In this document: piece after piece, positions 51,685 through 63,859 of the stretch
Numbering within the stretch: position 1 is the stretch's first letter
Layout of the letters: the number at the start of each line of letters is the position of its first letter
Source: Bacteroidales bacterium
GTDB taxonomy: Bacteria > Bacteroidota > Bacteroidia > Bacteroidales > UBA3824
Assembly: GCA_016293845.1 (NCBI GenBank)
Contig: JAEDDH010000004.1
Span: forward strand, 142,084 to 206,083
Length of the DNA stretch: 64,000 nt
Direction of reading: 5' to 3'
The notes under the pieces: model-generated
Databases searched by the model: none
Told to the model about the DNA's origin: nothing
Seen by the model: only the letters and a program-made list of their open reading frames with translations
Translations under genes and position numbers: made by a program

Positions 51685-53274
51685 ATGGGAATTTACGTAA
51701 ATCCGGGCAACGAACTTATGCAAGACGCTCTCAATTCAATGATTTATGTTGATAAATCATTAATAGTAAGAGAGTTGAATAAGATGATTGGTACACGTCA
51801 AAAGTATGTCTGCGTGTCGCGTCCGAGGCGTTTCGGCAAATCGATGGCTAAGGCATTACTTATGGCTTACTATTCCCGAGGCTGTAAGTCGCACCGTCAA
51901 TTCAAGAACTTGAAAATAGCCCAGGAACCGAGTTATAGAAAATATCTCAACAAATTGAATGTCATTGCGATAGATTGCGTTGACTTTTCATCGAACCTGT
52001 TTAAAACAAGCAAGGATAGTTTTGTAAACAGGATGACTGAAAAGATTAAGAGGGAATTTGTTGAAGAATTTTCTGATGTTGATTTCTCTGATTGTCAAAG
52101 TATTGCTGATTGCATCAAAATCGTTTATAAAAAAACAGGTGTAAAGTTTGTAATACTCATTGATGAATACGATTTGCCGATACGCATCGAACAGCCTGAA
52201 TCTCTTTTTAAAGAGTATCTTAATTTGTTGCTTTCATTGTTCAAAAGCGAGGCTACAAGTCAGGCGACGGCTCTTGCCTACATTACTGGTATATTGCCGA
52301 TTGTTCGCGATAGGGTAGAGAGCAAACTTAACAATTTTAGGGAATATACATTTCTCGAACCGGCTAATTTTGCCGAGTTTACAGGGTTTACAGAACAAGA
52401 GGTGCAGGGACTTTGCGACAAATACAATGTCAATTATCAGGAATGTCTCAATTGGTACGACGGTTACGATGTAGAAGGCATTAACATTTGCAATCCTCAC
52501 GCAATAGTCGAGAGTATTACATATAAAAAGTTAAAGCCATTTTGGTCTAATACAGGTACTTACGAAACCATTGCGCCATACATAAAAGGCAACTATCAAG
52601 GCATCAAAGACGACCTGATTAAAATGCTTTCAGGCGGCAGTGTTCCGGTTAACATAACTTCATTTGCCAACACGCTTTCCGACATAACTTCTAAGGACAA
52701 ATTGTTTACGTACCTGATGCACACGGGTTTTCTCGCCTACAATCTCGATGAAAAAACCTGTCGTATGCCAAACCTCGAAACTCAGGACATTTGGGGCAAC
52801 GCTTTGGAAAATACCGAGTCGTTCAAAGTTTTGGGCGAGTTCATCAAAAACTCGGAACGTCTTCTCAAAGCCACACTTGCAAAAGATGGCGAAACTGTTG
52901 CAAATGCCTTGGAAGTGCTTCACGGCGAGGTAACGTCGCATTTGAGTTACAACCACGAACAATCGTTGCAGTCGGCGATTGACATTGCGTATATGCACGC
53001 AAAGACATATTATCGGATTTTCAACGAAGTTCCGACGGGCAACGGCGTTGCAGACGTGGTTTTGGTGCCGCTGTATCCCAATTGGCCCGCAATAATCATC
53101 GAACTAAAACGCAACTCGTCCACCGAGTCCGCCCTCAACCAAATCAGCGAAAAGAAATATTCTGCGCGGCTCAACGATTATAACGGACGCCTACTTTTCG
53201 TCGGAATTAACTACGATGAAAAGAAAAAGCACACTTGCGAGATAGTGGAGGTGGAAAAGAATGGTGGCTGTTAG
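51685..53274 (+). CDS. AAA-ATPase_like + PD-(D/E)XK (DUF1703-type) protein
   Basis: IYVDKSLIVRELNK...VCVSRPRRFGKSMA is the hallmark N-terminus of the predicted AAA-ATPase family common in Bacteroides. The C-terminal ADVVLVP...IIIELKRN has a D...ExK nuclease-like motif. Confidence 0.8.
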   Translation: MGIYVNPGNELMQDALNSMIYVDKSLIVRELNKMIGTRQKYVCVSRPRRFGKSMAKALLMAYYSRGCKSHRQFKNLKIAQEPSYRKYLNKLNVIAIDCVDFSSNLFKTSKDSFVNRMTEKIKREFVEEFSDVDFSDCQSIADCIKIVYKKTGVKFVILIDEYDLPIRIEQPESLFKEYLNLLLSLFKSEATSQATALAYITGILPIVRDRVESKLNNFREYTFLEPANFAEFTGFTEQEVQGLCDKYNVNYQECLNWYDGYDVEGINICNPHAIVESITYKKLKPFWSNTGTYETIAPYIKGNYQGIKDDLIKMLSGGSVPVNITSFANTLSDITSKDKLFTYLMHTGFLAYNLDEKTCRMPNLETQDIWGNALENTESFKVLGEFIKNSERLLKATLAKDGETVANALEVLHGEVTSHLSYNHEQSLQSAIDIAYMHAKTYYRIFNEVPTGNGVADVVLVPLYPNWPAIIIELKRNSSTESALNQISEKKYSARLNDYNGRLLFVGINYDEKKKHTCEIVEVEKNGGC

Positions 53275-53347
53275 TAATAAGTAGATTGATGTTTGAGTCA
53301 AAATGTTGACGAAACAATACTTTTGGCAACCTTTTGGTTTGTTACAA

Positions 53348-54679
53348 TCATATTTTTAATAAATTAGAATTGCTTTGTTTGAATATGTCGTTTATTTGTG
53401 CATTACTAAATCCAGTCAATGATAAAACACAGCAAATTAGTAAAATTCTTAATTTGTTAGTAAGGTGGTATAGTTCATAACCCACTAAAACAATTTCACT
53501 ACTCTTTGGTGCATAAAAATGGGAGTAATAGTCCCTTGAATTAACGCAGGCTCGAATACATATATTAGCATTTTGGATTATTTCAATATTTGAAAATTCA
53601 AACAGTAGTTCGCCTATTTTATCTTTTAACGCTACTCTATTCTTGGCGTTCAAATTATTATTACGCTTATATGTATCTTCTCTAAATCGGCTCCAAAAGC
53701 CATCAAGTGCTTGAATAACAATTAAAAAATCAACGCTACTAAATGAACGTTTTCGTTCCAAACTATCAATTAAGTGTGTTCTAATTGGAGTAATTTCTTT
53801 TGGAGCGTTGTACCATTCTTTTAGAATCTGGGAATAGTAATTTTGTATAGTAGAGTAACTGTACAAAAAGTCAATAGAATTTATTTCTTTTGCCTTTATC
53901 TCTTTGAAATTTCTGCGAGATTGGACTATGTAAATTGGTTTATAGCGTTTTACATTATCTACATCTTGATATAGATTACTGTCGAACACTTTAATACAAG
54001 AACTTTTTACAATATTTGATGTTGCAACAGAAAGAAATTGTTCAAACATTAAAATATCTGATAACAATTCGCTAATTGAACAAGGCGAATTTTTCGAAAT
54101 ATCAATGGATACAAATTGCTTTATGTTGATTTCTTTTTGGCTTTTAGAGTACGAAATTTCTTGTAAAAGAGAAATGCTTGTTGTATCATTTATTGCAGTC
54201 TTGTTCAAAAGACATTTTTCTTTGCCGTTGGTTTGAAATGAAATATTAGTATTTTCATTTCCTGTTGAAAAAGATATTGCATTGTTAGGGCACCAATCGG
54301 ACAATTCAGGTATGATAGCATTAGCCCAATAGTTACACTTTTCGTCTAATCCCTTAATATGCTTACCAATAATCATATATTTGCAGATGTATTCTACAAT
54401 AGCAAAACCCGCTGTCCAATTGAAATTTGCTTTTTTAAAGACCTGTAATAATGTTATATCTTTTGAGTCAGAAGTGCGACCATATATAACAATGTCGTTT
54501 GTCTTTTTATCAAAAAACTGTTCCAATGGATGTCCAAAACTTCCGATGAGTTTTAACACAATTTTATCTTCTGGATAATATGTAAGTATTCCAGCAACAA
54601 GATTATCAGGCTGTTCTGGCAAGTACCAATAACCTTCGAATACTAATTGAGAACTCAAATTCAAAGCATCCATAATCAA
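53348..54679 (-). CDS. ApeA-like protein: ApeA_NTD1-like N-terminus and C-terminal HEPN (R-x4-H) motif
   Basis: The N-terminus FEGYWYLPEQPDNLVAGILTYYPEDKIVLKLIGSFG fits the ApeA N-terminal pattern (G.WWLP.....V.G.L......I.LEL.G.F). The C-terminal part has NSRDYYSH (R-x4-H). The gene is conspicuously AT-rich compared with its flanks. Family assignment is from memory. Confidence 0.5.
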   Translation of the reverse strand: MIMDALNLSSQLVFEGYWYLPEQPDNLVAGILTYYPEDKIVLKLIGSFGHPLEQFFDKKTNDIVIYGRTSDSKDITLLQVFKKANFNWTAGFAIVEYICKYMIIGKHIKGLDEKCNYWANAIIPELSDWCPNNAISFSTGNENTNISFQTNGKEKCLLNKTAINDTTSISLLQEISYSKSQKEINIKQFVSIDISKNSPCSISELLSDILMFEQFLSVATSNIVKSSCIKVFDSNLYQDVDNVKRYKPIYIVQSRRNFKEIKAKEINSIDFLYSYSTIQNYYSQILKEWYNAPKEITPIRTHLIDSLERKRSFSSVDFLIVIQALDGFWSRFREDTYKRNNNLNAKNRVALKDKIGELLFEFSNIEIIQNANICIRACVNSRDYYSHFYAPKSSEIVLVGYELYHLTNKLRILLICCVLSLTGFSNAQINDIFKQSNSNLLKI

Positions 54680-54923
54680 ATATTAAATTTTAATAAAAAA
54701 CACAAAGGTACAAATAATACGAGAGACATGCAAGTATTAATGATAATAATCCTGCATGGTCTCATATATAAAGATTACAAATTGTCATCAAATTTCATCC
54801 AATGTTCCGTTTATCTCGATACCTTGAATTTGGAATGCACTTATCCTTCTTGTGAAAATGCTGAAAACGGAATCAGAATAAACAAGCATAGGATTCATAT
54901 TAATTTCATTATATTTGTAAGTT

Positions 54924-55511
54924 TTAGAAGTTATCTCTAATATTATTTTCTTGATTAGATGCTGTTTTGACATTTTCATAAAGGTCTTTCAGACCCTCAG
55001 AGAATCGACTTTTTGCTGATTTCTTTTTGATACCCTTCAACTCTCTATCCAAATATCCGACCTCATGTTCTATTCGCAGTTTAATAACATTACCGTTGAT
55101 TATCTGTTGGATTTGGTCTTCGGTTATGTTGTAACTTGGATAAACATAGTAATTTGTTCCATATTTTGTTACCTTATACTCATAGTCGGCAGGTCCTATT
55201 TCTTTTGCGTTTTCAAGTTCGATTATTGTACCATCATCAAATTTAAGCAATAACTTACGACCGATGCCAAATTGAAGTTTCGTTTCATTTAGACACAATT
55301 CTAACTGCCAAAGATATAGATTGTTCTTGGTGATTGCGTATCCAACTGAAAAAGATGCGGCAGAAGACCATTCTGTGTAAAGATTTTTCCAATACGAGAG
55401 CACAATTCGTGTGCTGTCTTCAACAGAATACTTATCAATCCTAACATTTTGGGAGTAACCAAAAATTGGAAAGAGTAGTACACAAAAAACAATTGTCAGT
55501 ATTTTTTTCAT
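54924..55511 (-). CDS. Exported hypothetical protein (~195 aa)
   Basis: Signal peptide MKKILTIVFCVLLFPIFGYSQ from ATG 55511. The ORF finder extends it to TTG 55541. I recognise no domain. Confidence 0.55.
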   Translation of the reverse strand: MKKILTIVFCVLLFPIFGYSQNVRIDKYSVEDSTRIVLSYWKNLYTEWSSAASFSVGYAITKNNLYLWQLELCLNETKLQFGIGRKLLLKFDDGTIIELENAKEIGPADYEYKVTKYGTNYYVYPSYNITEDQIQQIINGNVIKLRIEHEVGYLDRELKGIKKKSAKSRFSEGLKDLYENVKTASNQENNIRDNF

Positions 55512-55585
55512 TTTATTTCTATTTTTCCGCGAACTTCCCAAACACGGTGTTTATTTTTCTAATTAACTACAAGACCTATATAAAC

Positions 55586-55870
55586 AAAAAACGTGGGATT
55601 TTTACAGTCGCTCGTTCCACTTGTTGAGGCTCTTGCATTGCCCATCCTGTCAGAAACGAGCAACACTCAAAGCCCACGCATTATGTATATACAACAAACC
55701 CCAAGAGTTTGAGATGATACATATTCGAGGGCATTACCGTGTTGCTTTGTACTTGACAGGATTTGGAATTTGCAAGATTTCAACAAGTCAAAAACAAAGC
55801 GTAAGTAACGCCTTTATTTTATAAGTCTGTTCTCATCCTACTTCTGCCCGAAGGCTTTTTGGATTTTAAA
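55586..55870 (-). ncRNA. Unclassified ~285-nt structured RNA or leader, copy A
   Basis: On the minus strand the order is a -7 box, ~285 nt with no conserved ORF, then a T6 run. It aligns end to end with 62251..62534, with compensatory substitutions in several helices (see findings). Confidence 0.55.
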
Positions 55871-55875
55871 CACAG

Positions 55876-55883
55876 CAAATATA
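55876..55883 (-). promoter_or_regulatory. -7 box TATATTTG driving RNA copy A
   Basis: The reverse complement of CAAATATA at 55876-55883 is an exact TAnnTTTG match. It sits at the same distance from the conserved RNA blocks as the box of copy B. Confidence 0.5.
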
Positions 55884-55955: not shown

Positions 55956-57524
55956 ATGAAAGAATTCAACACCACAGGCATTTGCTACCCCGATGAGCAT
56001 TATATGGTGGACATCAGCACCCGACTCGCCGACATAGAACGGAGAGTTGCCAAAGGAGAGTACATCACCATCAACCGCGGTCGTCAGTATGGAAAAACTA
56101 CTACTTTGTTTCATCTGGCCAAAAAGTTGATGGAGAAATACGTGGTGTTTTCTATTAGTTTTGAAGATTACAACCAAAAGGATTTCAATTCAATAGAATC
56201 TATTGCGTTTACTTTGTTGGAAACATTGCAGACGGCTATTGACGACTTGCCTGAACTTAATGTTGATCAATCTGTCAAAGACTTGATTGTAGACACATTA
56301 ACCGCCAATCAAGAGAAAAGGGAAATTATAAAAAGCGTTTTTGCAAAACTTTTAACCGATATCTGCCGAAATTCTTCAAAACCTATCGTCCTGATAATCG
56401 ACGAAGTGGACAATGCAAGCAACTACGAATCGTTTATCGAATTGCTAAGGATGTTGCGAAGCAAGTATCTTAAACGTGCCACAGTTCCAACATTCCAATC
56501 GGTAATTCTCGCTGGTGTGTACGACATTAAGAATCTCAAACTCAAAGTTCGCCCCGACAGCGACCACCAATACAATTCGCCGTGGAATATCGCCGTGGCG
56601 TTCACTTCCGATATGTCGCTACTATCTGAGGGTATCAACCAAATGCTGCAAGAATACGAAAACGACCACCACACAGGGATGGACATTTCGGAAATAACTC
56701 AATTAATCACCGACTACACTTCGGGCTATCCATTTTTCGTATCAAGGGTATGCCAACTTATTGACGAACAGAATCTTTCGTGGAGCAAAGAGGGTGTTAT
56801 CAATGCAGTAAAACTATTGCTAAGAGAAAAAAACACATTCTTCGATGATTTGCTGAAAAAATTAGACGACTATGTAGAAATCAACAAATTACTGAAAGAT
56901 ATTTTGCTTTATGGCAATTCGGTTTCGTTCAATATCGACAACAAGTTTCTCAACCTTGCGGCTATGTTCAATTATATAAAGGAAGAAAACGGTAAAGTTA
57001 AGATTTTTAACCGAATAATTGAAACGCGCCTTTACAACAAGTTTATGAGCGATGAGGAAATTACAAATACCTTATACAAACAGGGAGATATCGACCGCAG
57101 CCAATTTATTGAAGGCAAATCTCTCAAAATGGACAAAATTCTCGAAAAATTCGCAGTTCATTTCAACGATATTTACGGAAACAACGAACTGACTTTCAAG
57201 GAGGAAGAAGGACGGCGTTTCTTTATGCTCTACATCCGTCCGATAATCAACGGCGTGGGCAACTATTACATCGAGGCACAAACCCGCGACCGCTCTCGCA
57301 CCGATATGATTATCGACTATTACGGTCAACAATTCATCATTGAGATGAAGATATGGCGCGGCGACTCTTACAACGAACGCGGCGAAAAGCAACTATTTGA
57401 ATACCTCGACTTTTACCACACCAACAAGGGCTATCTTCTGAGTTTCTGTTTCAACAAAAAATCCAAACCCAAGGCTAAGGCTATTACGCTGGGAGATAAG
57501 GAGATTGTTGAAGTGGTGGTGTAA
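55956..57524 (+). CDS. P-loop ATPase + C-terminal PD-(D/E)XK-like nuclease domain protein
   Basis: Walker A is INRGRQYGKTTTL and Walker B is LIIDEVDN. The C-terminal TDMIIDYYGQQFIIEMKIWRG has a D...ExK motif. The architecture is analogous to 51685..53274, but the sequence is clearly different. Confidence 0.7.
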   Translation: MKEFNTTGICYPDEHYMVDISTRLADIERRVAKGEYITINRGRQYGKTTTLFHLAKKLMEKYVVFSISFEDYNQKDFNSIESIAFTLLETLQTAIDDLPELNVDQSVKDLIVDTLTANQEKREIIKSVFAKLLTDICRNSSKPIVLIIDEVDNASNYESFIELLRMLRSKYLKRATVPTFQSVILAGVYDIKNLKLKVRPDSDHQYNSPWNIAVAFTSDMSLLSEGINQMLQEYENDHHTGMDISEITQLITDYTSGYPFFVSRVCQLIDEQNLSWSKEGVINAVKLLLREKNTFFDDLLKKLDDYVEINKLLKDILLYGNSVSFNIDNKFLNLAAMFNYIKEENGKVKIFNRIIETRLYNKFMSDEEITNTLYKQGDIDRSQFIEGKSLKMDKILEKFAVHFNDIYGNNELTFKEEEGRRFFMLYIRPIINGVGNYYIEAQTRDRSRTDMIIDYYGQQFIIEMKIWRGDSYNERGEKQLFEYLDFYHTNKGYLLSFCFNKKSKPKAKAITLGDKEIVEVVV

Positions 57525-58447: not shown

Positions 58448-60007
58448 GTGATATACAAGGTATTAATAGCAGACGATGACACGCTCAGCCGCACTATTAT
58501 GAAATCGGTGCTGTCTAACGACGACACCACGGTTTACTCTGTGGACGAGTGTTCAAACGGCTTGGAGGCTTGGGCTAAGATACAGTCCGAACCGCCCGAT
58601 CTTGTTTTGCTCGATTGGCAGATGCCCGGAATGTCTGGTCTGGAAGTCACCAAGTTAATCAAAAAACGCTTTAAAACCACTTCTGTAATCATTGTTACTG
58701 GCAAAATCGACAGCAGCGACCTAAGCCTTGCCTTAAACTCTGGCGCAAACGACTATATCAAAAAGCCGATCGACAAGGTGGAGTTTCTTGCCCGAACCAA
58801 GTCGGCGGTAATGCTGCACGATAGTCTCGAAGAACTCGAAATCAAAAACCGTAAAATCCTCAACCAAAACGAGGACCTCAACAAATTGTCGCTAATTGTA
58901 AGACAGACAGCCAATTCGGTAATACTTTTCTCGCCCCACGGCGAAATAGAATGGGTAAACGAAGGATTCCAACACATGTACGGATACACCTTAGACGAGT
59001 TTATCAACAAACGCCGCGGCACCAACATTCTGAAACTCAGCTACAACGAGGACATCAACAAAAAATTCAAAGAACTATTTAGCAAGCAGCAGTCGGTAAA
59101 CTATATCACTCAATGCCGTGTAAAGTACGGCGCAACAAAATGGATTCAAACCACCCTCACACCCATCTTCGACGGTCGCAGAATAGAAAAATTCATTGCC
59201 ATCGAAACCGACATTTCGCAGCAAAAACACGTGGAGTTGGAACTTGAACGGTCGCGAACCGAAATTCTCAAAAAAAACGAAATCATCGAGAAAGAACGCT
59301 CCAAAACCGACAACCTCTTGCTCAACATTCTGCCCGTGTATGTGGTGTCGCAGTTAAAAGACGACGGATTCTCCTCGCCGCGAAACTACAAGATGGCAAC
59401 CATTATGTTCACCGATTTTAAGGGATTTACCAAATCGTGCGAAAACCTCACGTCAGACCAAATTGTGGCGGCACTGCATTTTTTCTTCTCCAAGTTCGAC
59501 GACATCATCTCGTGCCATTACATCGAAAAAATCAAGACCATTGGCGACTCGTATATGTGCGTAGGCGGCATTCCCCTTAGAAACAAAAGTAACCCTATCG
59601 ACGTGATACTCGCGGGGTTAGAAATCAACAACTTTATGGCAAACTACAAGCAGCGTTTTCCCGATATGAACCTTCCCGATTGGCAGTTGCGCATTGGCAT
59701 ACACACCGGAGCACTTATGGCGGGGGTTGTGGGCAAAATCAAATTTGCCTACGACACTTGGGGCGATGCCGTAAACGTGGCTAAACGTATGGAAAGTGCC
59801 GACGAGGTAGGCTGCGTAAACATCTCTGCCGAAACTTACAAATACGTAAAAGATTATTTTGTGTGCCGCTATCGTGGCTCGGTCGACATCAAAAACCACA
59901 AAAACATCGATATGTACTTTGTTGACCGCCTTTTGCCAAAATATTCGCTCGACGAAGAAGGAATTTTTCCTAACGACACCTTTATTGATATACTAAATTC
60001 GATTTAG
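58448..60007 (+). CDS. Response regulator with PAS domain and class III adenylate/guanylate cyclase output
   Basis: REC is VLIADDD...LVLLDWQMPGMSG...DYIKKP. A coiled coil and a PAS-like region follow (SVILFSPHGEIEWVNEGFQHMYGY). The cyclase catalytic motifs are ATIMFTDFKGFT, IKTIGDSYM and YDTWGDAVNVAKRMES. The start codon is GTG. Confidence 0.85.
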   Translation: MIYKVLIADDDTLSRTIMKSVLSNDDTTVYSVDECSNGLEAWAKIQSEPPDLVLLDWQMPGMSGLEVTKLIKKRFKTTSVIIVTGKIDSSDLSLALNSGANDYIKKPIDKVEFLARTKSAVMLHDSLEELEIKNRKILNQNEDLNKLSLIVRQTANSVILFSPHGEIEWVNEGFQHMYGYTLDEFINKRRGTNILKLSYNEDINKKFKELFSKQQSVNYITQCRVKYGATKWIQTTLTPIFDGRRIEKFIAIETDISQQKHVELELERSRTEILKKNEIIEKERSKTDNLLLNILPVYVVSQLKDDGFSSPRNYKMATIMFTDFKGFTKSCENLTSDQIVAALHFFFSKFDDIISCHYIEKIKTIGDSYMCVGGIPLRNKSNPIDVILAGLEINNFMANYKQRFPDMNLPDWQLRIGIHTGALMAGVVGKIKFAYDTWGDAVNVAKRMESADEVGCVNISAETYKYVKDYFVCRYRGSVDIKNHKNIDMYFVDRLLPKYSLDEEGIFPNDTFIDILNSI

Positions 60008-61600: not shown

Positions 61601-62168
61601 ATGCTTGATTGGAAAAAGCGTAAGGGTGAAACGGCATTGTTGATTAAAGGTGCAAGGCGCAGCGGCAAATCGACAATAGTCAGGCAATTTGTTGAAAATG
61701 AATACGAAACATACATCTTTATAGACTTTTCAAATGCAAAGAAAGAGGTATTTGATTTGTTTGAAGATGTGTCGGACCTTGATTACATCTTTATGCGCTT
61801 GCAGGTCATTTATAAAATTCAATTGATTGAGCGCAAGTCGGCGATTGTTTTCGACGAGGTACAGAAACAACCCTATGCACGTCAGGCGATTAAGCATTTA
61901 TCTACAACAAACTTTTGAGCGACAAACTTGACACTAACCTTGGCTATATTTATGAGAATATGGTGTCGCAAATTTTCAGCACCTCAGGCTACGAACTTTT
62001 TTATCACACAATTAAAAAAATGAGGGCAAAAGTTACTACGAAGTTGATTTCCTTTTATCCAAAGGCAACAAATTGATACCTGTTGAAGTAAAGTCATCGG
62101 GCAACAAATCGCACACATCGCCCGACAGGTTTTGCGAAAAAGCAGGTGTTCTCATCCTTTCAATATAA
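61601..62168 (+). pseudogene. Decayed AAA_14/DUF4143-type ATPase gene
   Basis: The N-terminal 105 aa (LLIKGARRSGKSTIVRQF, IVFDEVQ) end in a stop. The C-terminal DUF4143-like part (NLGYIYENMVSQIF...YYEVDFLLSKGNKLIPVEVKSSGNK) follows in two other frames, with a shift at an A7 run near 62020. About 200 aa of the middle are missing. Confidence 0.65.
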
Positions 62169-62237: not shown

Positions 62238-62245
62238 TATATTTG
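62238..62245 (+). promoter_or_regulatory. -7 box TATATTTG driving RNA copy B
   Basis: Exact TAnnTTTG match, at the same relative position as the box of copy A. Confidence 0.5.
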
Positions 62246-62250
62246 TGATG

Positions 62251-62534
62251 TCCTTTGTTACCGAAGTCCGCCAACGGAGTAACGGGCAGGGGGCAGACAT
62301 ATATTTAAAGGCGTTACTTACGCTTTGTACTTGACATACTGAAATTTGGTCGTTTCTTATCCTGTCAAGAGCAAGGCAGCACAGTAATGCCTGCGGGTTA
62401 TGGTATATACAGACCTGTAAGGGTCTGCGTGTACATATAAAACGTGGGCTTCGGTGTTGCTCGTCTCTGACAGGAGGGCAGACCAAAGCCTCAGTATGTG
62501 GGACGGGCGCAGCAAAATCCCACGTCTTTTTTTT
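62251..62534 (+). ncRNA. Unclassified ~285-nt structured RNA or leader, copy B
   Basis: It runs from just after the -7 box to a T8 run (62527-62534). Conserved blocks and covarying helices are shared with the minus-strand copy at 55586..55870. The overlapping 157-aa minus-strand ORF has no coding support. Confidence 0.55.
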
Positions 62535-62581
62535 GTAATTCCGAGTTTGGGAAGTTCTCCGGAGCAAAACTTGTTTGAAAA

Positions 62582-63859
62582 ATGAACATATTAAAAAAAG
62601 TGTTCTGCATTTTGCTGTTAGCCACTTTGACATTGAGTCTGAGGGCGCAGGATTCGGCTTTGGAGTCTTCAACGACCGACTGGACATTCGGCTTAGGCTT
62701 TGGCAAACGTTGCAACTTTATGAAAATCACAGAACTCGCATCAGGCATCGACGGCGACAAGGAGATGCGGGGCGGCGGACTGTTCTCGCTGTTCGCCTAC
62801 AAGGAAACGGCTGACGGCGGTAAAGCCATCAGGCCGCAGATAACATTCATAAGCCGTGGCGCAAAATACGCAAACTTAACATCCAAATCCTGGACAGAAG
62901 CATCATACTGCGTGGATGCCAAGTACATAGATTTCAGGCTGCCCCTGATAATGAACCTTGGCACATACCGCAGCGGAGGAATACAGCCATACTTCTACCT
63001 CGCGCCGATAATGGGAATGGCAAGCGGCGGAGAAATCTCTTTGACCGAAGCCAAGGAGGGCGGAAAGTCTGTTTCCGCAGACGTGTCAAAGTCTAACCTT
63101 GCCTCGTGGTATGTGGGCGCGGGCGCGGCTCTCGGTGTCAAATACAATCTCGAACTCAACGACGCCCGCTTGTATCTCGGTTTCGAGTGTATGTACGACT
63201 ACGGCATCACCAACACCTACGGCAAGAAGGAGAAAGACGGCGACATCAACGACATCGCCAACATCGTGAACTACACCGACTATTCGCTTGACGGCAAGCG
63301 CAAGTTTTCGGGACTTGAATTTCAAGTTGTGGTAGGCGTTCCGCTCACTGTGTTCAAGCGCAAAACAAAGCAGCCCACTCCGCCGCCGACAGTAGAAGAA
63401 CAGCCTGTTGTTGAGGCAGATACGGTAGCTGTGGAAGAAAAGCCTTGTTTCGACCTCGACGAGATTAATGAGATGATTGCCAACGGCGAGGATGTGCGAG
63501 GAAAGACCATCTGCGCCGTAAACAACACCATTAACTTCGATTTCGGCAGCGCGAAAATCAAGCCCGAAAGTTACCCATATCTCGACAAACTTGCCCTCAC
63601 GCTCAAAAGCACCGGCGCAAACATCAAAGTCAACGGACACACCGACAACAAAGGCACAGAGGCGTACAACCTGAAACTTTCGCGCGACCGTGCCAAATCT
63701 GTGGTAGAATATCTTGAAAAACAGGGCATTGAGCGGGATAAATTATCATCGGAAGGTTTCGGCCCTAACCGCCCCATATCCGACAACGCCACCGAGGAAG
63801 GACGCGCTATGAACCGCCGTGTAGAGTTCGAGATTCTCCGCGAAACAGATAACAATTAA
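62582..63859 (+). CDS. OmpA-family outer-membrane protein (N-terminal beta-barrel, Pro-rich linker, OmpA C-terminal domain)
   Basis: A signal peptide and an alternating-hydrophobic barrel region, then the KQPTPPPTVEEQPVVE linker. The OmpA-like domain has NFDFGSAKIKP...GHTDNKGTEAYNLKLSRDRAKSV...NRRVEFEI. Confidence 0.85.
   Translation: MNILKKVFCILLLATLTLSLRAQDSALESSTTDWTFGLGFGKRCNFMKITELASGIDGDKEMRGGGLFSLFAYKETADGGKAIRPQITFISRGAKYANLTSKSWTEASYCVDAKYIDFRLPLIMNLGTYRSGGIQPYFYLAPIMGMASGGEISLTEAKEGGKSVSADVSKSNLASWYVGAGAALGVKYNLELNDARLYLGFECMYDYGITNTYGKKEKDGDINDIANIVNYTDYSLDGKRKFSGLEFQVVVGVPLTVFKRKTKQPTPPPTVEEQPVVEADTVAVEEKPCFDLDEINEMIANGEDVRGKTICAVNNTINFDFGSAKIKPESYPYLDKLALTLKSTGANIKVNGHTDNKGTEAYNLKLSRDRAKSVVEYLEKQGIERDKLSSEGFGPNRPISDNATEEGRAMNRRVEFEILRETDNN

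Follow-up and report, generated by a model that had tools for sequence, protein, structure and literature searches.

An apparently undescribed family of structured leader RNAs with mutually exclusive conserved pairings in Bacteroidales of the rumen and gut

Attenuators of the trp and his type are promoter-proximal leaders of four segments, in which a 5' strand pairs with a 3' strand, this 3' strand with the 5' strand of a terminator, and the two terminator strands with each other, each pairing excluding the next; the final hairpin is followed by a U-run and by a gene that has no promoter of its own. Riboswitches that work by termination and antitermination (e.g., c-di-GMP-I, GEMM) are likewise structured 5' RNAs acting in cis, with an intrinsic terminator, alternative pairings and a mixed set of genes. 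In the protein-dependent antitermination systems, such as BglG/LicT RAT, ANTAR, PyrR, TRAP, LoaP and the Bacteroides UpxY leaders, an early conserved hairpin precedes the terminator, and one trans-acting factor can govern many unrelated operons. The element described here shares the architecture of all three groups, its early conserved hairpin being the one designated P1. It is found in Bacteroidales, which are dominant in the gut and rumen and use neither Shine-Dalgarno-based translation initiation nor Hfq, and for which, to our knowledge, few cis-regulatory RNAs are known.

The window analysed is a stretch of 64,000 nucleotides from a Bacteroidales contig (JAEDDH010000004.1, positions 142,084 to 206,083). 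It contains two copies of the element, copy A on the minus strand and copy B on the plus strand, which a preliminary description had interpreted as promoter-proximal leaders of two unrelated genes for exported proteins. Direct reading of the sequence reproduced all the positions given there for both copies, with the T-run of the terminator stopping at 55586 in copy A and at 62534 in copy B. The copies are approximately 75% identical across about 250 nt (nhmmer E = 2.4e-30), and a search of the whole window found no third copy, leaving A and B as the sole pair. Their folding energies are -88 and -97.9 kcal/mol, respectively (z = -7.3 each versus shuffled controls). The term promoter-proximal proved correct, given that a TATATTTG -7 box of the Bacteroidetes type lies upstream of each copy; position 55883, the end coordinate assigned earlier, is base 1 of the -7 box of copy A. 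The two genes that follow are indeed unrelated (BLASTP E = 0.51) and both encode a signal peptide. Finding two signal-peptide genes out of two is unremarkable, as about 43% of 556 background ORFs from related loci pass the same test for a hydrophobic N-terminus.

Both copies are members of a large, apparently undescribed family of structured leaders of rumen and gut Bacteroidales, with a length of about 285 nt from the start site to the U-run. The family comprises at least 110 unique cores from Bacteroidales MAGs and from rumen and human-gut metagenomes, with three loci in the MAGs and at least 120 in the metagenomes. The three genome hits understate the taxonomic spread because the pattern used for the genome collection, based on GTGTTGCTCG, fitted only the sub-branch of the window, the main family carrying GCGTTGCTCG. 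None of the 4227 models of Rfam 15 matched anywhere in the window; for copy A, matches at E <= 10 were at chance level (best 18 bits versus a threshold of 59), and the leader gave nothing in 20 diverse loci and nothing at E <= 1 in locus L041. No published description was found by sequence or by topic in the literature, which was covered incompletely; the family is not described in the Segatella copri sRNA paper, and the leader is absent from the first 200 of the 408 supplementary files of a structured-RNA survey of the human microbiome (PMC8040213). Multiple leader copies were found at no locus.

In copy A (all positions on the minus strand), the -7 box TATATTTG, read directly at 55876..55883, places the predicted transcription start at about 55868-55872. 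The transcript would begin with a variable 5' hairpin domain, P0 (55826..55872), which contains GCCUUCGGGC and is closed by CUGUGUUU:GAGAACAG; in the alignment of 85 5' domains, this region varies in length and sequence and is shrunken or missing in some members. It is followed by the 5' UAUA box (GACUUAUAAAA, 55815..55825), defined by column pairing with a box right behind the terminator, and by the P1 hairpin AAGGCGU-UACUU-ACGCUUU (55796..55814), defined by alignment and folding. P1 is identical in copies A and B; its invariance in the metagenome set was built in by the search pattern, and the only independent test comes from the three genome hits, which were retrieved with a different search key and also contain P1. 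Covariation delimits both strands of the rod. The 5' strand (55729..55791) is composed of UUGAC, an outer helix, H2, GUCAA, CAAAGCAACAC and GUAAUGCCC, the apical hairpin (55680..55728) differs in length and sequence across the family, and the 3' strand (55619..55679) includes segment b, GCGUGGGC, at 55672-55679 and GUUGCUCGUUUCUG at 55651-55664. The terminator region (55586..55620), delimited by sequence and folding, contains segment c (GUGGAA), the loop CGAGCGACUGUAAAA, the terminator 3' strand or segment d (AUCCCACG, 55591-55600) and the U-run (55586-55591). Behind it, the post-terminator box UUUAUAUAGGUCU (55572..55584) was read directly as the complement of AGACUUAUAAA in the 5' box, a pairing found family-wide, and the hairpin CCGUG-UUUGGGAAGUU-CGCGG (55527..55547, from sequence and folding) exposes in its loop segment e, UGGGA (55536-55540), which complements UCCCA of the terminator 3' strand. 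The gene behind the leader (54924..55511) starts MKKILTIVFCVLLFPIFGYSQ and its translation gives 195 aa with an N-terminal signal peptide and without a Pfam match. A spacer of 74 nt separates the T-run from its ATG at 55511; the distance of 45 nt mentioned previously refers to an alternative start, a TTG upstream at 55541.

In copy B (plus strand), the -7 box TATATTTG at 62238-62245 places the predicted transcription start at about 62250-62253. The variable 5' hairpin domain (UCCGCCAACGGA) and the 5' UAUA box (CAUAUAUUU) together span 62250..62307 in the alignment, P1 occupies 62308..62326 by alignment and folding, and the rod, defined by folding and covariation, extends over 62331..62499, with its 5' strand at 62331-62392, its apical hairpin at 62393-62441 and its 3' strand at 62442-62499, the last including segment b (ACGUGGGC, 62442-62449) and GUUGCUCGUCUCUG (62456-62469). 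Sequence and folding place the terminator at 62497..62534, with segment c (GUGGGAC), the loop GGGCGCAGCAAA, segment d (AUCCCACGU, 62516-62525) and the U-run (62527-62534). The post-terminator hairpin UCCGAG-UUUGGGAAGUU-CUCCGGA (62540..62563) holds segment e, UGGGA (62548-62552); relative to copy A, about 27 nt of spacer behind the terminator are absent, the 3' box included. The gene that follows (62582..63859) starts MNILKKVFCILLLATLTLSLRAQ and encodes 425 aa that include a signal peptide and, at the C-terminus, an OmpA domain (PF00691, E = 5.5e-24). The competing elements that had been pointed out by eye are all in place, that is, the hairpin ATGTGGGA...TCCCACGT and the upstream ACGTGGG in copy B, and the two alternative partners of TCCTGTCA, TTGAC upstream and TGACAGGA downstream.

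The published consensus of Bacteroides promoters is a TAnnTTTG box centred near -7, and scanners for sigma-70 are not applicable to Bacteroidetes. This box occurs within 200 nt upstream of 96 of the 102 leaders versus 12% of shuffled sequences, most often 56-76 nt ahead of P1, and the predicted start sites would be those of the Bacteroidetes primary sigma factor. At the other end, most members have a predicted intrinsic terminator, CGUGGGA...UCCCACG followed by U5-8, which a simple terminator scanner missed, since that scanner allows loops of up to 8 nt and the loop here measures 15-17 nt. A same-strand ORF starts 40-100 nt past the T-run in 65 of the 80 leaders versus 21% at random positions, with a modal distance of 60-78 nt. 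Since the orientation relative to the next ORF and the distance to it are both conserved, the sequence supports a leader-like behaviour of the element rather than that of a randomly placed free-standing gene. A promoter belonging to the downstream gene itself was rejected, given that a -7 box was found in none of the 65 spacers between terminator and ATG; spacer promoters for alternative sigma factors could still exist.

The reading that we favour, and hold to be somewhat probable, is that of a cis-acting leader of the attenuator type, which gates transcription into whatever gene follows. It is rather unlikely that the element is instead the gene of a free-standing, trans-acting, rod-like sRNA next to an independently transcribed gene, with the pairing between segments d and e serving as an antisense-type kissing control through contact of the terminator loop or 3' strand with the 5'-UTR loop of the adjacent mRNA. 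A promoter box of its own and a strong hairpin with a U-run would suit such a gene; nonetheless, with no -7 box in 65 spacers, the target mRNA would be left without a visible promoter, and it is not easy to see, unless leader and gene are co-transcribed, why genes so different should keep a spacing of 60-78 nt.

The preliminary description had also argued against a leader peptide, on the grounds that a 28-codon ORF at 62248 in copy B has no counterpart in copy A, and the family bears this out. The ORF is present in copy B, with its ATG 3 nt behind the -7 box and its start probably at or before the transcription start, and the rest of the family shows no conserved equivalent of it. An ATG ORF of at least 4 codons is missing in 28 of 89 leaders, and the stops of leader ORFs, instead of lying in the rod 5' strand, cluster at a conserved UAG (UAUA box) or UGA (P1 loop). 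A leader-peptide attenuator was consequently rejected, as there is no conserved short ORF that overlaps the first pairing segment.

Structure statistics were obtained from 45 non-redundant sequences (alignment A4). Segments a (GCCC) and b (GCGUGGGC) belong to the 5' and 3' strands of the rod, c (GUGGGA) and d (UCCCACG) to the 5' and 3' strands of the terminator, and e is a UGGGA-type loop 3' of the terminator; the AT helix joins the inner-rod 3' strand GUUGCUCGUUUC to GGGACGAGYRAC, which covers the terminator 5' strand and loop. For the rod with the terminator, 95.2% of the cells are paired versus 37-46% in slid controls, and the rod helices and terminator contain 214 compensatory cells versus 57 +/- 8 in shuffles, none of 500 shuffles reaching this value. 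The set formed by AT, b:d and the box pairing is paired in 95.7% of cells (slid controls 37-60%) with 54 compensatory cells versus 17 in shuffles (0/500), and the set of d:e and the box pairing in 91.8% (24-59%) with 60 versus 20 (0/500). Compensatory changes can already be seen between the two window copies, where CUUGUUGA/UCAACAAG of the rod in copy A becomes CAUACUGA/UCAGUAUG in copy B, and a second rod helix changes from UCUUGCA/UGCAAGA to UUUGGUC/GACCAAA. The competition noticed previously between TTGAC:GTCAA and TGTCA:TGACA of the rod, and between ACGTGGG (b) and GTGGGA (c) for TCCCACG (d), is real and conserved, and the rod, AT/b:d and c:d constitute mutually exclusive conserved pairings that end in a hairpin and U-run. 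Rod pairs include 159 G-U cells versus 32 A-C cells, and this excess indicates that the strand that folds is the one given.

Given its shape, in which the ends are paired and an asymmetric internal loop lies near the closing helix, the rod could be compared to 6S RNA, a promoter mimic that binds RNA polymerase. We find this hardly credible, as the 6S families of Rfam were unmatched in the window and in 20 other loci, the rod is almost fully paired with no large central bubble, and the many divergent paralogues each accompany a different gene, with 2 copies within 7 kb, whereas ssrS is a single-copy gene.

The conserved pairing does not stop at the terminator. RNAalifold selects d:e unprompted, and the d-e duplex energy is -13.1 kcal/mol with the own partner versus -10.6 kcal/mol with permuted partners, with none of 5000 permutations as good; duplex energies with permutation were used for this test, a search for the longest complementary run having been set aside as too noisy. 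At least eight matching d/e sequence types were found, such as AAUCCC:GGGAUU, GUUCCC:GGGAAC, GAACACCCA:UGGGUGUUC, GAUUCUC:GAGAGUC and GGCUUCC:GGGAGCC, while the match in both window copies is limited to 5 bp (UCCCA:UGGGA). In 91.6% of cells, the 5' UAUA box (alignment columns 5-9) is paired to columns 320-324; changes on both sides have occurred in three of the five pairs. As far as sequence comparison can tell, these results support three alternative partners for the terminator 3' strand, one of them beyond the terminator, and a covarying conserved pairing that extends past it. We know of no well-described precedent for a terminator 3' strand with conserved pairing to a loop downstream of the same terminator. 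A local hairpin around e was dropped as a family feature, being MFE-predicted in just 21 of the 45 members.

These pairings bear on two of the alternatives. Segment e opens with UUGG, which we take to resemble the YUNR recognition loop of antisense RNA systems, as an sRNA would have it, but pairing of the 5' box with the post-terminator box needs one continuous transcript. Such a transcript is also presumed by a precursor-processing module, which we consider quite improbable, in which the closing helix, formed by the 5' UAUA box and GAAAGGCGU with ACGCUUUUU and the 3' box, would be the site of a double-strand-specific RNase, as in rRNA operons. Cleavage there would yield a stable rod-shaped RNA together with an mRNA whose 5' end is defined, and the module would chiefly serve the maturation or stability of RNA instead of regulating termination. 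Over about 14-18 bp the closing helix runs without interruption; it encloses the whole element and has compensatory changes in its box part, with conserved elements flanking the U-run on both sides, all of which would fit processing; yet a canonical GC-rich hairpin with U6-8 in the middle should halt most transcripts first, and the 3' box is missing in copy B and in some other members.

When the 5' half is folded alone, the same alpha/beta/gamma hairpin, which folds back on P1, appears in every subfamily with a mean of -27 kcal/mol, although this fold was drawn from the same sequences and has zero pair changes on both sides, its variable partner swapping only bases that preserve the pair (GC/GU 23:20 and 27:17; UG/UA 27:17). 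The 3' half alone folds to b:d + AT, also in the divergent L062/L101 subfamily with altered AT strands, where it is the only hairpin at that place. The b:d + AT hairpin has a median of -37 kcal/mol and its end abuts the U-run, while the c:d hairpin has a median of -9.3 kcal/mol and is missing in one subfamily. In the window, c:d is predicted to be weak in copy A (-3.3 kcal/mol) and to reach -10.2 kcal/mol in copy B, versus -36 kcal/mol for the b:d + AT hairpin in each. In the rod fold, nothing pairs with the conserved terminator loop ACGAGYRAC. The AT pairing may account for its conservation, the other candidate being the closing-rod pairing with the P1 3' strand that the end-to-end rod fold contains.

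A simple reading of the long-range ACGTGGG pairing as the antiterminator is not supported, since the b:d + AT hairpin is very stable and ends right at the U-run. For the same reason, and because the divergent subfamily has it alone, AT + b:d was rejected as a clean antiterminator; in the folding models, this hairpin looks like a second, stronger terminator. The wider idea of a cis-acting leader choosing between termination and antitermination retains the leader placement, the conserved spacing and the alternative pairings, and loses the simple ACGTGGG antiterminator.

In the attenuator-type reading that we favour, RNA polymerase would start at TAnnTTTG and the majority of transcripts would stop at the U-run. 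Three folds would be in play. In the first, P1 is followed by the rod of about 85 bp made from the 5' and 3' strands, and the short, large-loop c:d hairpin would stand alone before the U-run. In the second, the 5' strand would fold onto the opened P1 (alpha, beta, gamma) and the 3' strand on itself as b:d + AT. The third would be available to read-through transcripts only, with d and the 3' part of the terminator loop pairing with e, which lies about 20-45 nt ahead of the start codon, and the 5' UAUA box pairing with the matching box just behind the U-run. The balance of these folds would set the strength of the hairpin before the U-run and hence the fraction of polymerases that continue, and the downstream gene, having no promoter of its own, would depend on read-through of the leader.

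The subfamily that lacks c:d suggests that the rod corresponds to read-through and the two-hairpin state to termination. A further combination, beta/gamma + a:b + AT, would leave d unpaired; among the conserved folds, none was demonstrated that clearly frees segment d. Since d sits in a GC-rich helix before the U-run in both major folds, the alternative folds may secure termination and not regulate it. That d stays paired before the U-run in every fold, favouring efficient termination, would also be expected of an sRNA gene, as would the prediction that the terminated RNA forms, from end to end, a highly stable rod (27 of 45 members have the closing helix; z = -7.3); in the attenuator-type reading, the terminated product would refold to this same rod and may persist as a stable RNA. 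No aptamer-like conserved junction was identified in the leader, and the predicted folds offer a sole candidate for a ligand pocket, in the internal loop that separates helices alpha and beta.

The genes downstream of the leaders are very diverse and include protein kinases, Dcm and Dam methylases, AbiH, TerD, LytTR proteins, OmpA, lipoproteins and small peptides. Hydrophobic N-termini are found in 48% of 58 unique downstream proteins versus 43% of background ORFs, rising to 61% versus 43% for proteins of at least 100 aa (p = 0.026). The link to exported or envelope proteins seen in the window fails family-wide, given the diverse cargo and the barely enriched signal-peptide-like N-termini; a survey had been suggested of whether homologs always precede envelope genes, and kinases, methylases, AbiH and TerD follow leaders too. 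The exported-protein theme was ruled out as a family property on both counts. In the near-identical strain L001, the flanks are 96-98% identical and the leader 76%, everything 3' of the leader has been replaced, and homology stops 8 nt past the T-run.

A more speculative and rather doubtful extension is that the leader is a portable switch module at the 5' boundary of hypervariable slots for accessory and defence genes, which would sense a global signal and use d:e as the private address of each paralogue. The signal could be a second messenger, an RNA-binding antiterminator, or infection or stress, and the terminated product or the leader's own 3' strand would lock onto the downstream 5'-UTR loop through d:e, this address coupling the state of the leader to expression of the cargo. 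If true, the leader would represent a new RNA architecture and a new riboswitch or attenuator class.

Hypervariable cargo, its replacement in the sister strain up to the element, the orphan methylases and Abi genes within it, and a long imperfect palindrome with a reverse-strand self-match might also call to mind a repeat acting as DNA, be it a MITE-like palindrome, a cassette recombination site or a single-stranded promoter hairpin as in plasmid leading regions. This is very improbable and largely contradicted by the strong strand asymmetry of the rod (G-U 159 versus A-C 32), by the many helices that depend on G-U pairs, and by the fixed arrangement of the promoter box 5', the U-run 3' and the orientation to the next gene. 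Terminal repeats, target duplications, transposases and integrases were not noticed among the adjacent ORFs examined, and phage or plasmid copies were found neither in 2.9 million viral contigs nor in PLSDB or INPHARED. The fixed orientation to the ORF, the asymmetry and the lack of such copies led us to reject a mobile palindrome.

At least 110 distinct sequences make this a large family, and its covariation is unusually clear for several mutually exclusive folds. If the leader controls read-through, as in the attenuator-type reading, the surface, defence and modification genes under its control, which vary between strains and shape phage resistance and host interaction, would constitute a regulon, and the leader would offer both a tractable model of multi-state co-transcriptional RNA folding and a portable part for the control of expression in Bacteroides engineering.

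Compared with the trp and his attenuators, the leader has no conserved peptide and, having a rod of about 85 bp, is far larger; what competes with the short terminator is another hairpin ending at the U-run, the pairing passes the terminator, and the controlled genes are mutually unrelated. With riboswitches it has in common what the predicted folds suggest to be an expression platform, namely the alternative terminator-related pairings, but it has neither an Rfam riboswitch match nor a compact multi-helix junction, and its conserved nucleotides are mostly accounted for by alternative base pairing. Unlike in the protein-dependent systems, Rfam detects neither a RAT nor an ANTAR motif and no linked regulator gene was identified, the upstream neighbours differing in family and orientation; GGCGUUAC presumably bears a weak resemblance to an ops-like element. 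The integron attC cassettes and defence-island hot spots are similar in that a structured element bounds a slot, the content of which is swapped between close strains and across the family; the leader differs in lying 5' of the gene, carrying a promoter and a terminator and having neither an integrase nor tandem arrays, and the evidence for it points to a function at the level of RNA. At this level, SreA/SreB of Listeria and EutX/Rli55 of Enterococcus are comparable, as abundance and stability are predicted for the terminated leader, the 3' part of which complements an mRNA 5'-UTR (d:e). The leader differs from them in that its target sits on its own downstream transcript and covaries with it.

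The two leader RNA copies of the window, copy A on the minus strand and copy B on the plus strand, share about 75% identity across roughly 250 nt, and a search of the whole window found none beyond these two. Re-reading the sequence of both copies showed that all coordinates in the preliminary description were right. The T-run of copy A ends at 55586 (minus strand), and after a 74-nt spacer the ATG at 55511 opens an ORF for a 195-aa protein with a typical signal peptide. The T-run of copy B ends at 62534 (plus strand), followed by the ATG at 62582 of a 425-aa protein that combines a signal peptide with an OmpA domain at its C-terminus; in pairwise comparison it is unrelated to the protein that follows copy A. 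Both copies fold far more strongly than shuffled sequence (z = -7.3 each) and have a Bacteroidetes -7 promoter box, TATATTTG, on their 5' side (55876-55883, minus strand, for copy A; 62238-62245, plus strand, for copy B), with about 285 nt from the predicted start site to the U-run. The 28-codon ORF reported at 62248 in copy B is present; given that it begins 3 nt past the -7 box, it is probably not transcribed in full.

A genome scan with the 3' motif, a key specific for one sub-branch of the family, covered one genome per GTDB species and matched three Bacteroidales MAGs: one from goat, one from yak and one from another metagenome. One of the three is L001, whose flanks are 96-98% identical to those of the window, so the window derives from an uncultured Bacteroidales bacterium of rumen or gut. 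In JGI metagenomes, a search with the P1 hairpin, whose constancy in this set is forced by its use as the key, yielded at least 120 loci with at least 110 unique cores from rumen and human-gut samples.

The anatomy drawn from the family alignments runs, from 5' to 3', through a -7 box TAnnTTTG, a variable 5' hairpin, a box UAUAUAUAG, the P1 hairpin AAAGGCGU-UACUU(G)-ACGCUUU, and a rod (about 85 bp) whose outer helix is hypervariable and whose apical hairpin varies. Next comes the terminator region, with GUGGGA (segment c), the loop CGAGYRAC..., UCCCACG (segment d) and U5-8. Beyond it stand another UAUAG box and, past about 20 variable nt, a UUGGGAGU-type motif (segment e), with the AUG about 20-45 nt further on. 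In the variable 5' hairpin of most members, a CCGAAGCCC...GGGUGG motif often recurs; examples of the 5' domain lie on the minus strand at approximately 3150-3210 in L035 and 1560-1660 in L041, and in one subgroup the domain has an extra insertion of ~40 nt (GCUGGCUUGCUGCCAUCGGGA...). A divergent subfamily (L008, L022, L023, L037, L044, L062, L064, L068, L101, L113 and L120) is set apart by the P1 loop UUUA, a rod sequence of its own and the lack of the short c:d hairpin; in some of its members the distance from the first T-run to the start of the first long ORF is about 285-350 nt. In four of these loci (L008, L064, L113 and L120) the leader lies upstream of DNA methyltransferase-like genes, which we take from their N-terminal sequence to be Dcm- or Dam-like.

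With genes called by ORF heuristics, 65 of 80 members among the matches listed have a same-strand ORF (ATG start, at least 50 aa) that begins 40-100 nt past the T-run, versus 21% at random positions, and the mode of this distance is 60-78 nt. Also among the matches listed, 96 of 102 members have a -7 box no more than 200 nt upstream, versus 12% of shuffles; it is mostly 56-76 nt before P1, and none was found in the spacers between T-run and ATG (0/65). Upstream neighbour genes differ in family and orientation. The element behaves as a leader rather than as a gene placed at random.

Across 45 sequences of less than 92% identity (alignment A4), the rod and the short terminator have 95.2% of cells paired, versus 37-46% with slid partners, and 214 compensatory cells versus 57 in shuffles (0/500 as high); positions in the outer rod helix show as many as five pair types each. 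The excess of G-U over A-C cells in the rod (159 versus 32) fixes the folding strand. A DNA-level repeat or mobile element is hardly credible in view of this strand asymmetry, the fixed orientation and the outcome of searching the mobile-element collections IMG/VR, PLSDB and INPHARED, which hold zero leader copies.

A scan of all column pairs with pair counting brought out other conserved pairings, which are incompatible with parts of the rod. The AT helix (12 bp) joins GUUGCUCGUUUC of the inner-rod 3' strand to GGGACGAGYRAC of the terminator 5' strand and loop, and immediately outside it is nested a helix between GCGUGGG (segment b, rod 3' strand) and CCCACGC (d). Together with the pairing of the 5' UAUA box with the post-terminator box, these reach 95.7% of cells paired versus 37-60% when slid, and 54 compensatory cells versus 17, in counts made on the same sequences from which the alternative structures were derived. 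In the 5' half, the P1 5' strand pairs with GUAAUGCC or UGACGUC, the P1 3' strand GCUUUGU with ACAAAGC, and UUGAC with GUCAA. This half-fold (89.7% of cells paired versus 33-45% slid) is predicted for every subfamily, its variable partners change between pair-preserving bases only, and the mutually exclusive TCCTGTCA pairing proposed earlier proved to be part of it.

Segment e pairs with the 3' part of the terminator loop and UCCC, with 92% of cells paired and both-side changes in five of six pairs. RNAalifold picked this d:e pairing unprompted, and the duplex energy with the own partner is -13.1 kcal/mol versus -10.6 kcal/mol with permuted partners (0/5000 permutations). Such pairing could also serve an independent small RNA that targets the neighbouring mRNA, but this is unlikely given that the spacer has no promoter box, the distance to the downstream gene is fixed, and the 5' box pairs with the post-terminator box. 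The box-pairing helix runs on into GAAAGGCGU:ACGCUUUUU, which closes the terminated RNA as an end-to-end rod in 27 of 45 MFE predictions; a processing module that frees a rod RNA is improbable, more so than the small RNA.

Folded alone, the 3' half of copies A and B and of two divergent loci (L062 and L101) gives a b:d plus AT hairpin of -33 to -46 kcal/mol. In the divergent loci both AT strands have wholly different sequence and the hairpin still forms, which is the strongest support for the AT pairing being real. This hairpin abuts the U-run exactly and should, therefore, terminate by itself; a role as antiterminator was dropped since the hairpin ends at the U-run. Once the rod forms, what remains is the short and much weaker c:d hairpin (median -9.3 kcal/mol, loop of 15-17 nt; -3.3 kcal/mol in copy A and -10.2 in copy B), which is missing in L062 and L101. 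Three partners of segment d are thus conserved: b, c and e. The rod fold and the two-hairpin fold, which combines the 5' half-fold with b:d and AT, are predicted to differ chiefly in the strength of the hairpin before the U-run. Because a subfamily lacks c:d, comparison suggests that the rod would correspond to read-through and the two-hairpin fold to termination. Hypothetically, two of the 5'-half helices (beta and gamma), a:b (GCCC of the rod 5' strand with b) and AT together would free d.

The proposal that the leaders serve exported-protein genes did not hold for the family. By a hydrophobicity rule, 28 of 58 unique downstream proteins (48%) have a hydrophobic N-terminus versus 43% of 556 background ORFs, so that two of two in the window is unremarkable; among those of at least 100 aa the count is 27 of 44 (61%, p = 0.026). 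Surveying the genes downstream of homologues showed that envelope genes are not constant: the cargo includes protein kinases, C5 and N6 DNA methylases, an Eco57I/MmeI-type enzyme, AbiH and TerD, besides LytTR, Sel1, Big_2, dockerin, BspA-LRR and OmpA proteins. Pfam matches to C-5 and D12 methylases occur among these genes. Many downstream proteins have no Pfam match, including ORFs of 52-60 aa; the conserved ones (L018, L019, L041, L046, L074 and L076; L031, L055 and L080), possibly small proteins or peptide precursors, form two groups, MDKTI(I/V)GRIGEK...AAQGY and MNTKIYSAPQCEVRKTRVRMS....

Comparison with a near-identical strain (L001) shows flanks 96-98% identical to the window, while identity is only 76% over leader copy A and the divergent AAA-ATPase gene. 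Homology stops 8 nt past the T-run, and window 53263-55578 is unrelated to L001 705-3910. With unrelated content from that point between near-identical flanks, the leader looks like the 5' boundary of a slot whose genes can be exchanged. The slot holds the 195-aa protein and an ApeA-like HEPN protein in the window, and a Big_2 lipoprotein, a 176-aa protein and a 579-aa protein, presumably DUF262/GmrSD-like judging from its sequence, in L001. The ApeA-like defence gene (ApeA_NTD1 and HEPN_Apea; 53348-54679, minus strand) follows the 195-aa gene on the same strand after about 245 nt and could belong to the same leader-controlled unit. Directly 5' of copy B, an AAA_14-type ATPase gene in two short ORFs (61601-61918 and 61915-62076, plus strand) is probably a pseudogene; intact AAA-ATPase/PD-(D/E)XK paralogues lie at 51685-53274 and 55956-57524, and similar genes stand divergently upstream of five other leaders (L003, L060, L085, L086 and L095).

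The earlier view of a cis-acting leader that ends in a terminator with competing pairings is largely borne out by the conserved pairings, the upstream -7 box and the fixed ORF spacing, and the family is probably of the attenuator type. Beyond the pairings, which conservation and covariation show, we infer that transcription would begin at the -7 box promoter and that the U-run would stop most transcripts, the strength of the terminator being set by the fold taken during transcription. The cargo gene would lack a promoter of its own and rely on read-through; in read-through RNA e would capture d and the two boxes would pair, while terminated RNA would settle into the stable rod. The ORF survey of the family found no conserved leader peptide, the 5' domain alignment no aptamer-like junction, and the upstream neighbours of family loci no linked regulator gene. 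Between the two copies, 58448-60007 (plus strand) encodes a protein that fuses a response-regulator receiver and a PAS domain to a class III adenylate/guanylate cyclase. A cyclic nucleotide produced there would be a candidate for the signal, but nothing ties it to the leader.

The window copies match no family in Rfam 15, and 20 diverse family members gave zero Rfam matches. A 6S-like RNA is very improbable, given zero model matches, no central bubble and many paralogues. No description was found in the searchable literature, and the leader family appears undescribed. It is unusual in its many conserved alternative partners, its covarying pairing across the terminator and its hypervariable cargo.
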